A DNA stretch of 64,000 nucleotides from Escherichia coli (GCF_024298765.1 NZ_CP101210.1), one strand, 5' to 3'; shown: positions 49,429 through 55,614, counted from the first letter of the stretch. Notes: generated by a model from the letters alone, not told the origin. Made by a program: numbers and translations.

Positions 49429-49668
49429 CCATTCAGGATGAGGCGGTAAGCTTCATCCTGATATTGTTAGTTCAGTTGCGGTCCAGTTAATCATTCTAAA
49501 TAACAACTGCTGAAATTATACGAATTTCGGTGTATATTTTAATTTATAGCGATAAAGTTATTTTTATTTTCTGCGATGAACTTCACAAATAATTGTCGGT
49601 TAAGTTAAATTTATTTCAAATGATAATAAATATCAGTTCACTTATAATTTCTTGCTTTGTGATTTTAA

Positions 49669-49682
49669 TTGATAACGATCAA
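49669..49682. promoter_or_regulatory. FNR-consensus palindrome upstream of ydhY
   Basis: TTGATaacgATCAA, a perfect match to TTGAT-N4-ATCAA, about 200 nt upstream of ydhY in an AT-rich spacer. Confidence 0.55.
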
Positions 49683-49883
49683 TGTTAAGAGCCCAGAATA
49701 ATCACATTATTTTTTCTCCTAACCATAAAGGATTAGTTTATCAGCGTTAAATCTTTTCTCATACACTATCGGGTTAGGGAAAATATCTGGTGTTGAGGAC
49801 AGCGTCAGCAGCGTATTAGTTGAGTGCCTAATATCAGGCTGCTGAATTGTCAGCACTGTGTTTGCGAAGAGGATGCGAAATAA

Positions 49884-50510
49884 ATGACCCCGGTTGATCG
49901 TCCACTATTAAATATTGGCTTAACGCGATTAGAATTCTTGCGTATATCAGGAAAAGGCCTTGCTGGTTTAACAATTGCCCCTGCTTTACTGTCACTTTTG
50001 GGTTGCAAACAGGAAGATATTGATAGCGGCACAGTAGGGTTGATAAATACACCCAAAGGGGTGCTGGTGACCCAACGTGCGCGATGCACGGGTTGCCACC
50101 GCTGTGAAATCTCTTGTACCAACTTGAACGATGGCTCAGTAGGGACATTCTTCTCCCGTATCAAAATCCATCGCAATTATTTCTTTGGCGACAACGGGGT
50201 TGGCTCTGGCGGTGGCCTGTATGGCGATCTCAACTATACCGCGGATACCTGCCGTCAATGCAAAGAGCCGCAATGCATGAACGTCTGCCCGATTGGTGCG
50301 ATTACCTGGCAGCAGAAAGAAGGCTGTATTACCGTCGATCATAAACGTTGTATTGGCTGTAGCGCCTGTACTACGGCATGCCCGTGGATGATGGCCACCG
50401 TAAATACCGAAAGTAAAAAATCCTCGAAATGTGTGTTATGCGGTGAATGCGCAAACGCCTGCCCAACAGGGGCGTTAAAAATTATCGAGTGGAAAGATAT
50501 TACTGTGTGA
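49884..50510 (+). CDS. ydhY: 4Fe-4S ferredoxin-like protein YdhY (208 aa)
   Basis: Multiple CxxCxxCxxxCP motifs (CTGCHRCEISC, CRQCKEPQCMNVCP, CIGCSACTTACP, CVLCGECANACP). Confidence 0.9.
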   Translation: MTPVDRPLLNIGLTRLEFLRISGKGLAGLTIAPALLSLLGCKQEDIDSGTVGLINTPKGVLVTQRARCTGCHRCEISCTNLNDGSVGTFFSRIKIHRNYFFGDNGVGSGGGLYGDLNYTADTCRQCKEPQCMNVCPIGAITWQQKEGCITVDHKRCIGCSACTTACPWMMATVNTESKKSSKCVLCGECANACPTGALKIIEWKDITV

Positions 50511-50530
50511 ATCTTGCAAAGGAAAAAATC

Positions 50531-53284: not shown

Positions 53285-53347
53285 AATTTCAGGGAGATGT
53301 CATGGATAGGGTGGACAGTAGCAGCCACTGCATTAGGGGATAATCAG

Positions 53348-54016
53348 ATGTCCTTCACTCGACGCAAATTTGTTCTGGGGATGGGAACAGTAATCTTTTT
53401 TACTGGTTCTGCGTCTTCTCTGTTAGCGAACACGATGCAAGAAAAGAAAGTTCGGTATGCCATGATTCATGACGAGTCACGGTGCAATGGCTGTAATATT
53501 TGCGCCCGCGCATGCCGTAAAACTAACCACGTCCCCGCTCAGGGAAGCCGTTTATCGATAGCACACATTCCAGTCACCGATAACGACAACGAAACGCAGT
53601 ATCACTTTTTTCGCCAGTCATGCCAGCACTGTGAAGATGCTCCTTGCATCGACGTTTGCCCGACAGGGGCGTCGTGGCGTGATGAGCAGGGGATCGTGCG
53701 GGTAGAAAAATCGCAGTGCATCGGCTGCAGTTATTGCATTGGCGCTTGTCCTTACCAGGTTCGCTACCTTAACCCTGTCACTAAAGTGGCAGATAAATGT
53801 GATTTCTGCGCTGAGTCCCGACTGGCAAAAGGCTTTCCGCCCATTTGCGTCAGCGCCTGTCCGGAACACGCATTGATCTTTGGTCGCGAAGATAGCCCAG
53901 AAATTCAGGCGTGGTTGCAGGAAAATAAATACTATCAATATCAGCTACCTGGTGCCGGGAAACCGCACCTGTATCGCCGGTTCGGTCAACATTTGATTAA
54001 AAAGGAAAATGTATGA
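53348..54016 (+). CDS. ydhX: Tat-exported 4Fe-4S ferredoxin-like protein YdhX (222 aa)
   Basis: Twin-arginine motif TRRKFVLG; Cys clusters CNGCNICARAC, CQHCEDAPCIDVCP, CIGCSYCIGACP. Confidence 0.88.
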   Translation: MSFTRRKFVLGMGTVIFFTGSASSLLANTMQEKKVRYAMIHDESRCNGCNICARACRKTNHVPAQGSRLSIAHIPVTDNDNETQYHFFRQSCQHCEDAPCIDVCPTGASWRDEQGIVRVEKSQCIGCSYCIGACPYQVRYLNPVTKVADKCDFCAESRLAKGFPPICVSACPEHALIFGREDSPEIQAWLQENKYYQYQLPGAGKPHLYRRFGQHLIKKENV

Positions 54017-54798
54017 ACCCGTCGCAACATGCTGAACAGTTTCAGAGCCAGTTGGCGAACTATGTGCCACTGTTCACTCCCCAATTTTGGCCGGTGTGGT
54101 TGATCATTGCCGGACTATTGCTGGTAGGGATGTGGTTGGTGCTGGGGCTGCATGCCTTGCTTCGTGCTCGTGGCGTGAAGAAATCAGCCAACGACCATGG
54201 TGAGAAGGTTTATCTTTACAGCAAAGCGGTCAGATTATGGCACTGGTCGAATGCGTTACTCTTTGTATTGTTGCTGGCAAGTGGGCTGATAAATCACTTT
54301 GCGCTGGTGGGCGCAACTACGGTTAAAAGTCTGGTTGCGGTGCATGAAGTTTGCGGATTTTTGTTACTGGCATGCTGGCTCGGCTTTGTTCTGATCAATG
54401 CCGTTGGGGGTAATGGTCACCACTATCGCATTCGTCGTCAGGGGTGGCTGGAGCGAGCGGCAAAACAAACGCGATTCTATTTGTTTGGCATTATGCAGGG
54501 GGAAGAACATCCTTTCCCGGCAACAACCCAGTCTAAATTTAATCCCTTACAGCAGGTTGCCTATGTTGGTGTCATGTATGGATTGCTGCCGTTGTTACTA
54601 TTGACGGGGCTGCTGTGTCTCTATCCGCAAGCCGTGGGAGATGTGTTTCCTGGCGTAAGATACTGGTTATTGCAGGCGCATTTTGCTCTGGCATTTATAA
54701 GCCTCTTTTTTATCTTCGGTCATCTTTATCTTTGCACCACGGGGCGTACGCCACACGAAACCTTTAAAAGCATGGTCGATGGCTATCACCGGCACTAA
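54013..54798 (+). CDS. ydhU: Membrane cytochrome b-like subunit YdhU (PhsC-like), 261 aa
   Basis: Polytopic membrane protein with conserved His; ATGA overlap with ydhX. Confidence 0.88.
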   Translation: MNPSQHAEQFQSQLANYVPLFTPQFWPVWLIIAGLLLVGMWLVLGLHALLRARGVKKSANDHGEKVYLYSKAVRLWHWSNALLFVLLLASGLINHFALVGATTVKSLVAVHEVCGFLLLACWLGFVLINAVGGNGHHYRIRRQGWLERAAKQTRFYLFGIMQGEEHPFPATTQSKFNPLQQVAYVGVMYGLLPLLLLTGLLCLYPQAVGDVFPGVRYWLLQAHFALAFISLFFIFGHLYLCTTGRTPHETFKSMVDGYHRH

Positions 54799-54801
54799 CG
54801 A

Positions 54802-55614
54802 ATGATCATTACACGAGCAGACCTGCGAGAATGGCGTATCGGAGCGGTGATGTATCGCTGGTTTCTGCGCCATTTCCCACGCGGCGGTAGTTATGCCGAT
54901 ATTCATCATGCACTGATTGAGGAAGGATATACGGACTGGGCGGAGAGTCTGGTTGAGTATGCGTGGAAAAAATGGCTGGCGGATGAAAACTTCGCGCATC
55001 AGGAAGTTTCTTCTATGCAAAAACTGGCCACAGATCCCGGAGAGAGAGCATTTTGCAGTCAGTTTGCCCGCAGCGACGATCATGCTCGCATCGGCTGTTG
55101 TGAGGATAATGCCAGAATCGCAACCGCTGGGTATGCCGCGCAAATTGCCAGTATGGGTTATAGCGTGCGGATTGGAAGTGTCGGCTTTAACAGTCACATT
55201 GGCAGCTCCGGTGAACGCGCACGGGTTGCTGTAACCGGTAATTCTTCGCGGATAAGCAGCGCTGGAGATAGCAGTCGGATTGCGAATACCGGAATGCGAG
55301 TACGCGTTTGTACATTGGGTGAACGATGTCATGTCGCCAGTAATGGTGACCTGGTGCAAATCGCCAGCTTTGGCGCAAACGCCAGAATTGCCAACAGCGG
55401 CGACAATGTACACATCATTGCCAGCGGTGAAGATTCAACAATAGTGAGCACGGGCGTGGTCGACTCAATTATTCTCGGGCCAGGGGGAAGCGCCGCACTG
55501 GCATATCATGACGGCGAAAGAGTTCGCTTCGCCGTCGCCATTGAAGGTGAAAACAATATTCGAGCCGGAGTCCGCTATCGCCTTAATGAACAGCATCAGT
55601 TTGTTGAGTGCTGA
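54802..55614 (+). CDS. ydhT: Uncharacterized protein YdhT (270 aa) with internal 9-residue periodic repeats
   Basis: 270-aa ORF ending the ydhY-T operon; repeats described in findings. Confidence 0.85.
   Translation: MIITRADLREWRIGAVMYRWFLRHFPRGGSYADIHHALIEEGYTDWAESLVEYAWKKWLADENFAHQEVSSMQKLATDPGERAFCSQFARSDDHARIGCCEDNARIATAGYAAQIASMGYSVRIGSVGFNSHIGSSGERARVAVTGNSSRISSAGDSSRIANTGMRVRVCTLGERCHVASNGDLVQIASFGANARIANSGDNVHIIASGEDSTIVSTGVVDSIILGPGGSAALAYHDGERVRFAVAIEGENNIRAGVRYRLNEQHQFVEC

Follow-up and report, generated by a model that had tools for sequence, protein, structure and literature searches.

The ydhYVWXUT operon of Escherichia coli, a probable FNR-activated locus for a membrane-associated molybdenum-pterin oxidoreductase

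Within a 64-kb window of the Escherichia coli chromosome (the whole stretch of DNA analysed, 64,000 nucleotides), positions 49,429 to 55,614 carry the ydhYVWXUT genes together with their control region. Based on gene content, protein motifs and promoter conservation, and on published data for the same locus, we conclude that this region is very probably a class II FNR-activated operon which encodes a membrane-associated, periplasm-facing molybdenum-pterin oxidoreductase. The six genes are co-directional on the + strand and occupy 49884-55614, as seen both in our list of open reading frames and in the RefSeq annotation of an identical chromosome, with junctions of 20, 12, 63, -4 and 3 nt for Y-V, V-W, W-X, X-U and U-T, respectively (Table 1). 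This organization of tight or overlapping genes agrees with an earlier reading of the same DNA, hereafter the original prediction, and the analysis described below bears out its protein assignments as well: two polyferredoxins, YdhY and the Tat-signal protein YdhX, a pterin enzyme of the aldehyde:ferredoxin oxidoreductase (AOR) family in YdhV, a PhsC-like membrane cytochrome b in YdhU, and two proteins of undefined function in YdhW and YdhT. Its description of a periplasm-facing, respiratory-type complex with an undefined substrate likewise agrees with the literature.

Results

The catalytic subunit YdhV

YdhV matched both domains of the AOR family, AFOR_N (PF02730, E = 2.6e-67) and AFOR_C (PF01314, E = 1.6e-47), as well as the NCBIfam model PRK09849 (1370 bits), and its relatives among structures in the Protein Data Bank (PDB) were 1AOR, 1B25 and 4Z3W. 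The residues C307-x2-C310-x3-C314 and C558, which correspond to the [4Fe-4S] ligands of AOR/WOR enzymes, were invariant in 21 clade representatives. When a profile of the clade was searched against PDB sequences, C336 of YdhV was found opposite C322, the tungsten ligand of BamB; this cysteine is kept in 15 of the 21 representatives, including 10 of the 11 sequences that are at least 41% identical to YdhV. The same alignment placed Glu313 of the Pyrococcus furiosus AOR (PfAOR) opposite Gly332 of YdhV, in a region of low alignment confidence. Judged by its sequence, YdhV is a member of the AOR/WOR family that does not qualify as an aldehyde oxidoreductase sensu stricto, and the name "aldehyde oxidoreductase" is a family label only.

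Several published studies have dealt with this protein. As quoted elsewhere, Reschke et al. (2019) reported that YdhV binds a redox-active molybdenum-bis-molybdopterin cofactor (bis-Mo-MPT), with Mo preferred over W, and no substrate was found. Szaleniec and Heider (2025) describe YdhV as a sister to BamB, with Cys336 as an extra ligand and without an aldehyde-type second shell. Putumbaka et al. (2026) assign YdhV/YdhY to the "Class V" membrane-associated WORs (clade 41), treat the E. coli enzyme as periplasm-facing, and found the homologue CsWOR41L to be inactive on 46 aldehydes. The subunits encoded here, YdhV and YdhY accompanied by YdhW, YdhX, YdhT and the predicted polytopic YdhU, are those of a Class V system.

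Comparison with described enzymes places these features in context. The clade 41 enzyme of Cetobacterium somerae (CsWOR41) shares with the E. coli system the core of WorL (YdhV) and WorS (YdhY), extra membrane-linked subunits and a predicted export signal on WorS, and it too is without aldehyde activity or known function. In contrast, CsWOR41 prefers W whereas YdhV prefers Mo, E. coli has X, U and T besides W, and the E. coli WorS signal reads R-L and not R-R. BamB, from the sister clade, has the same AOR fold, and for both enzymes the aldehyde-type second shell is reported as missing; however, BamB is cytoplasmic, tungsten-dependent and part of the large Bam complex, whereas YdhV belongs to a quinone-linked system that bears export signals. 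PfAOR (PDB 1AOR) shares the AFOR_N and AFOR_C domains and the CxxCxxxC [4Fe-4S] motif with YdhV, but has no protein ligand to its tungsten and is a soluble, ferredoxin-linked enzyme that oxidises aldehydes.

Electron-transfer subunits and direction of electron flow

Each of the two ferredoxins, YdhY and YdhX, contains four cysteine motifs of the CxxCxxCxxxC (4Fe-4S) type. YdhX scored 250.5 bits against the NrfC model TIGR03149, below the equivalog cutoff of 377.6, and is therefore NrfC-like but not NrfC. YdhU matched Ni_hydr_CYTB (PF01292, E = 1e-30) and, with 455.7 bits against a cutoff of 204, the PhsC model PRK15006 of NCBIfam; its approximately five hydrophobic regions predict a polytopic membrane protein, as in the PhsC/Ni_hydr_CYTB family. 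We know of no phsAB partner for this "PhsC" in E. coli. The PhsABC, PsrABC, TtrABC and NrfCD systems share with the ydh system a modular, quinol-linked periplasmic plan and anaerobic regulation, with YdhX, a predicted Tat-exported (twin-arginine translocation) four-cluster ferredoxin, resembling NrfC, TtrB and DmsB, and YdhU resembling the PhsC anchor. The catalytic subunits differ, being an AOR-family protein with bis-MPT in the ydh system and a dimethyl sulfoxide reductase-family protein with bis-molybdopterin guanine dinucleotide in Phs, Psr and Ttr. Unlike Phs, Psr, Ttr and Nrf, the ydh system also has a second four-cluster ferredoxin, YdhY.

How the subunits are ordered, the topology of YdhY and YdhV, which way electrons flow and what YdhW and YdhT do are inferred as follows. 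YdhU, through haem b, would exchange electrons with the (mena)quinone pool, and an electron wire facing the periplasm would lead from there through the four [4Fe-4S] clusters of YdhX and the four of YdhY to YdhV, where catalysis would involve one [4Fe-4S] cluster, the bis-Mo-MPT cofactor and the Cys336 ligand. Electrons would most likely flow from quinol to a periplasmic acceptor, making the complex a quinol-dependent reductase, because the regulation of the operon matches that of the low-potential terminal reductases dms, ynf and frd.

The same complex might also operate in reverse, with YdhYVXU acting as a periplasmic dehydrogenase that delivers electrons from an aldehyde or another reduced compound to the quinone pool, in the manner of formate dehydrogenase-N or hydrogenase-2. 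In its favour, characterised AOR/WOR-family members mostly oxidise aldehydes, and the Ni_hydr_CYTB family to which YdhU belongs also holds the anchors through which hydrogenases and formate dehydrogenase reduce quinone. We nevertheless consider it unlikely, given that YdhV is reported to lack the second-shell residues of AOR and has a BamB-type cysteine ligand, and that the aldehydes offered to CsWOR41L gave no activity. Repression by nitrate and nitrite is, within the NarL regulon, more typical of alternative reductases.

The accessory proteins YdhW and YdhT

Neither YdhW nor YdhT had a match in our local copy of Pfam. The fold predicted for YdhW is a tandem winged-helix, and the protein co-occurs with ydhY and ydhV, in Firmicutes as well. 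We considered whether YdhW could be a chaperone of the TorD/DmsD/NarJ type, but its predicted fold is not the all-helical fold of TorD-like proteins. Within the quinol-dependent reductase proposed here, YdhW, as part of the conserved Y-V-W core, would most likely act in its assembly or in an accessory role. The start of ydhW is ambiguous, being annotated at 52637 in K-12 and at 52646 by the Prokaryotic Genome Annotation Pipeline (PGAP) and RefSeq.

YdhT has a much narrower distribution, with 47 protein clusters among 5.8 billion proteins, all from Enterobacterales wherever the source is named. A high-confidence prediction gives it a conserved helical N-terminal domain followed by a beta-solenoid of approximately 15 tandem nine-residue repeats, with a consensus of roughly R-I-a-S-x-G-x-x-x, and the only fold neighbours are generic beta-helix proteins. 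YdhT showed neither a signal peptide nor a hydrophobic segment, and would be an Enterobacterales-specific accessory protein of the complex.

Export signals of YdhX and YdhY

The N-terminus of YdhX, MSFTRRKFVLG (MSFTRRKFVLGMGTVIFFTGSASSLLA), has the form of a canonical Tat motif, and YdhX is among the proteins that a published list gives as predicted Tat substrates of E. coli. An in-frame ATG at 53297, 51 nt upstream of the annotated start of ydhX, leaves this start ambiguous and, if used, would bury the Tat motif.

The N-terminus of YdhY (residues 1-42, window 49884-50009) reads MTPVDRPLLNIGLTRLEFLRISGKGLAGLTIAPALLSLLGC41KQ, with the Tat-like motif T-R-L-E-F-L-R and a candidate lipobox, L-L-G-C41. 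In 86 YdhY homologues that have the motif, the first arginine was followed by L in 47, R in 28, Q in 9 and K in 2. The 47 R-L proteins are from Enterobacterales wherever the organism is named and include many near-identical E. coli sequences, while the 28 R-R proteins are more distant, among them that of Alkaliphilus. Of the 86 homologues, 80 have a lipobox that ends in Gly-Cys, and in an alignment of 22 sequences Gly40 was invariant and Cys41 at least 90% conserved. The +2 residue of the lipobox is Lys in E. coli and Asp in Edwardsiella. No segment of YdhY reached the threshold for transmembrane-like hydrophobicity.

Since a lipobox matters only after export, its retention suggests that, even with R-L in the motif, export of YdhY continues. 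YdhY may be exported alone or piggy-backed on the canonical signal of YdhX, in which case Cys41 would then be lipidated. We tentatively propose, as a possibility that is still doubtful, that YdhY is a Tat-exported lipoprotein with a single-arginine (R-L) signal and that YdhW serves as its dedicated assembly or proofreading factor. If so, lipidated YdhY would tether YdhY-YdhV to the periplasmic face of the membrane beside YdhX-YdhU. No discussion of YdhY as a lipoprotein was found in the literature searched. To our knowledge, YdhY would then be a native Tat-dependent lipoprotein of E. coli not described before, with a natural single-arginine Tat signal.

A split topology would place the subunits differently: the R-L motif would keep YdhY-YdhV at the cytoplasmic face, YdhX alone would be exported, YdhU and YdhX would serve a different or vestigial electron path, and catalysis would take place on the cytoplasmic side. 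The presence of R-L in all Enterobacterales YdhY proteins, against R-R in more distant homologues, and the absence of YdhY from the predicted Tat substrates are in line with this arrangement, as are reports of cytoplasmic YdhV without membrane partners in Eggerthella and Gordonibacter. However, the Enterobacterales proteins keep T-R-x-x-F-L-R, a mildly hydrophobic h-region, the invariant glycine and the lipobox cysteine under selection, the tight Y-V-W-X-U operon and the Tat signal of YdhX would allow co-export, and the 2026 classification has the E. coli enzyme facing the periplasm. We therefore regard a split topology as distinctly improbable and favour the periplasm-facing complex.

The FNR site and the promoter core

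The intergenic region between fumD and ydhY measures 455 bp and has a GC content of 33%, compared to 49% for the window. It contains the FNR palindrome TTGATAACGATCAA, which matches all 10 specified bases of TTGAT-N4-ATCAA and is the sole perfect match in the 64 kb. In shuffled windows, 0.13 perfect matches are expected per window and at least one was found in 13 of 100 shuffles, so that by sequence statistics alone the significance of the palindrome is only mild; its reality follows from its position, its conservation in Citrobacter and published data from chromatin immunoprecipitation followed by sequencing (ChIP-seq). Matches with one mismatch lie at 14022, 30244, 32723 and 33056, and the total of five with up to one mismatch, including the perfect site, is about what chance would give (3.45 expected).

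To map conserved elements, the E. coli upstream region was aligned with those of three Citrobacter species, giving a mean column identity of 71%. Four near-invariant blocks stand out in this footprint, namely the Fur box, the FNR site, the -10 hexamer and a NarL-like 7-2-7 element, and the Shine-Dalgarno region AGAGGATGCGAAATAAATG upstream of ydhY is conserved in the alignment as well. The position of the inferred hexamer CATTAT predicts a transcription start at 49717-49718, which would put the centre of the FNR site at -41.5/-42.5. FNR-like sites were also found 176 nt (Edwardsiella) and 144 nt (Budvicia) upstream of ydhY. The whole ydhY control region is 98% identical to that of K-12 MG1655, and the FNR and 7-2-7 elements are identical. 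By computation, the palindrome corresponds to 1,754,678-1,754,691 in NC_000913.3. Coordinates in two versions of the K-12 genome are offset by approximately 1.98 kb. After this offset, the palindrome lies within about 20 bp of 1,752,688, the centre of the FNR peak of Myers et al. (2013).

Myers et al. (2013) list ydhYVWXUT as activated, report an FNR ChIP-seq peak there, place the site at -42.5 and score the operon positive in both ChIP-seq and expression (category 1), and FNR dependence of the operon was reported by Partridge et al. (2008), according to papers that cite that study. The perfect FNR site of the original prediction thus stands, but its location does not: the prediction had put the palindrome in the long AT-rich leader, whereas it lies in the promoter, approximately 42 bp upstream of the inferred start near 49718. 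The prediction was to fall if FNR did not bind the palindrome or if the transcript started downstream of it in a way incompatible with activation, and the published peak and the FNR-dependent expression at -42.5 contradict both. That the palindrome is a chance match or a site for another regulator such as CRP, with FNR irrelevant, is extremely improbable, for although 13% of shuffled 64-kb windows hold a perfect match and the region is AT-rich, FNR occupancy and FNR-dependent expression are published, the half-sites are invariant in Citrobacter against the 71% average, the spacing to the conserved -10 is correct for class II, and related sites precede ydhY in Edwardsiella and Budvicia.

In the proposed mechanism, transcription would begin at about 49718 with an FNR dimer bound at -42.5, upstream of a weak -10 hexamer and with no -35 element. 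A simple sigma-70 scan missed this promoter, as was to be expected of one that depends on FNR and has no -35. The scan did flag a good match, ATGATA-17-TATAAT (10/12) at 49620-49648, upstream of the FNR site and overlapping the Fur box; this match may represent either a second promoter or a decoy, and was not taken as the main promoter because the published data put FNR at -42.5. The ydhY promoter has been reported to be transcribed better in vitro by the sigma-S holoenzyme.

Fur, NarL/NarP and the leader

The Fur-box-like element agrees with GATAATGATAATCATTATC at 14 of 19 positions (49616-49634), and its core, TGATAATAAAT.TCA, shows no variation across E. coli and the three Citrobacter species (footprint block a, 49621-49635). 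A Fur ChIP peak at ydhY has been published, and in strain CFT073 expression of the ydh operon in a delta-fur mutant is reported at 0.07-0.25 of wild type (14-fold lower at 0.07), independently of RyhB. This RyhB-independent drop indicates that Fur activates the operon, an unusual role for Fur. Fur bound at the conserved box near -93 would thus be a second activator, which would fit a complex that needs approximately nine [4Fe-4S] clusters and haem; Fur may possibly act by opposing the silencing of this AT-rich stretch upstream of ydhY.

In the 7-2-7 element, each heptamer is one mismatch from TACYYMT, and the surrounding block d (49719-49736), CTAACC.TAAAGGATTAG, is almost invariant in Citrobacter. 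Regulation of the ydh operon by NarL and NarP is stated in the title of Partridge et al. (2008). NarL/NarP would repress in the presence of nitrate or nitrite, probably through this element, which lies at about +3 to +18. Induction under anaerobic conditions, dependence on iron and repression by nitrate together would fit an iron-rich respiratory enzyme of low priority. We also looked for a riboswitch or other structured RNA, such as a Moco riboswitch, in the 166-nt leader, but found no Rfam match at E <= 1 and an ordinary folding energy (z = -1.4).

Gene order in other organisms

Comparison of gene order across genomes indicates that the conserved core of the system is Y-V-W, that X and U are the quinone link in Proteobacteria, and that T is an enterobacterial addition. 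Budvicia has the complete order Y-V-W-X-U-T, and Telmatospirillum has moaA followed by Y-V-W-X-U. Edwardsiella has Y-V-W-X-T without U, beside the nap operon, and Alkaliphilus has W and tatA followed by Y-V. In three Citrobacter species the fumD-ydhYVWXUT synteny is kept.

The neighbourhoods of these loci differ. In Edwardsiella tarda the operon (L003, 10001-15265) is tail-to-tail with nap, and the lack of the cytochrome b gene ydhU puts the membrane partner of YdhX in question. In the Firmicute Alkaliphilus sp. (L005, 8563-15049), genes for HGD-D-like and BcrAD/BadFG-like (activase) proteins lie on the flanks of the cluster, with an XdhC-like gene close by. The gene fumD is directly upstream of ydhY in all three Citrobacter loci (L007, L008 and L009) despite differing outer flanks; just upstream of fumD, L009 has genes for a sensor kinase resembling TtrS and for a response regulator of the GerE type, and of these two the fetched L007 locus includes only the response regulator. 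We considered the Citrobacter TtrS/R-like genes, the Edwardsiella nap operon and the Alkaliphilus HGD-D/BcrAD genes as clues to the substrate, but they are too weak to name one.

The locus in E. coli and its surroundings

A genome search showed that the window is E. coli chromosome, and many chromosomes of the species match the stretch at 100% identity. Among 5426 complete E. coli genomes, the ydh region was found in 5425; a single genome had no match and about 30 lacked most of the region, while plasmid-labelled records held 2 of 5431 matches. The K-12 genes ydhYVWXUT (b1674-b1669) are the same locus, with identical gene order and the flanks fumD, pykF and ydhS, and differ from the stretch by strain-level substitutions only, for example at YdhY residues 2 and 10, and by the different annotation of the ydhW start.

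Downstream, ydhT and the convergent ydhS end 5 nt apart (junction region 55614-55837). Because the nearest + strand terminator-like hairpin beyond ydhT is approximately 200 nt within ydhS, transcription of the ydh genes probably continues into ydhS in the antisense direction. ExcludonFinder lists ydhS and ydhT as an excludon.

Table 1. Positions of the ydhYVWXUT genes, their control elements and the upstream neighbour in the window.
Feature	Position	Strand	Description
Fur-box-like element	49616-49635	+	TCAAATGATAATAAATATC; centre at about -93 from inferred start; candidate Fur site
FNR site (footprint block b)	49669-49682	+	both half-sites invariant in three Citrobacter
-10 hexamer, inferred (block c)	49705-49710	+	CATTAT; 4/6 vs TATAAT; invariant between E. 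coli and Citrobacter
5' untranslated leader	49718-49883	+	about 166 nt; inferred from promoter geometry
NarL/NarP-type 7-2-7 inverted heptamers	49720-49735	+	TAACCAT-AA-AGGATTA; about +3 to +18; candidate operator for nitrate/nitrite repression
ydhY	49884-50510	+	four-cluster [4Fe-4S] ferredoxin, WorS-type small subunit; Tat-like signal (TRLEFLR), predicted lipobox LLGC41
ydhV	50531-52633	+	AOR/WOR-family catalytic subunit; bis-Mo-MPT and one [4Fe-4S]
ydhW	52646-53284	+	acidic accessory protein, isoelectric point 4.5; predicted tandem winged-helix
ydhX	53348-54016	+	four-cluster ferredoxin, NrfC/DmsB-like; predicted Tat signal
ydhU	54013-54798	+	PhsC-like membrane cytochrome b; presumed quinol/quinone site
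ydhT	54802-55614	+	N-terminal helical domain, then predicted beta-solenoid; Enterobacterales only
fumD (ydhZ)	49219-49428		small DUF2767 gene; upstream neighbour of ydhY
Terminator-like hairpin	49433-49461	+	just after fumD; 12-bp stem, 6 GC pairs; upstream boundary of ydhY control region

Discussion

The operon, its FNR site with position and occupancy, control by NarL/NarP and Fur, and the Mo-bis-MPT cofactor have all been described before, and the finding as such is not new. What our analysis adds is modest: the footprint map of the promoter, the R-L/lipobox signal of YdhY, the alignment of C336 with C322 of BamB, and predicted folds for YdhW and YdhT. Of the three checks put forward with the original prediction, FNR dependence and occupancy on the one hand and the Mo/W content of YdhV on the other are already published, while a screen of aldehydes, carried out on a homologue, gave no activity.

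Several points weigh against the proposed complex and its regulation as we have drawn them. Published accounts of clade 41 report no function, substrate or activity for any member, and the direction of electron flow is accordingly read from regulation and module homology. The Tat-like motif of E. coli YdhY contains one arginine, R-L and not R-R, and YdhY is missing from the published list on which YdhX appears, so that the periplasmic location of YdhY and YdhV in E. coli is a prediction. Matches to the 7-2-7 motif number 2 in the window against 3.1 expected, which is not significant for the motif by itself, and the case for this operator therefore comes from its position and conservation. The fold prediction for YdhW is of moderate confidence (predicted local distance difference test score, pLDDT, 75).

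Taken together, the results provide a consolidated regulatory map of the operon and two leads for purification of the holoenzyme, namely the export signal and lipobox of YdhY and YdhW as a partner of the core. If true, the reading of YdhY as a lipoprotein would hold moderate interest for those who specialise in Tat export and molybdoenzymes. The ydhYVWXUT system is among the last molybdoenzyme systems of E. coli without a substrate, and the clade 41 "Class V" WORs to which it belongs are reported to outnumber all other WOR groups in catalogues of human-gut genomes, where the many E. coli sequences bias the count. Identification of the substrate would thus matter for anaerobic physiology in the gut.

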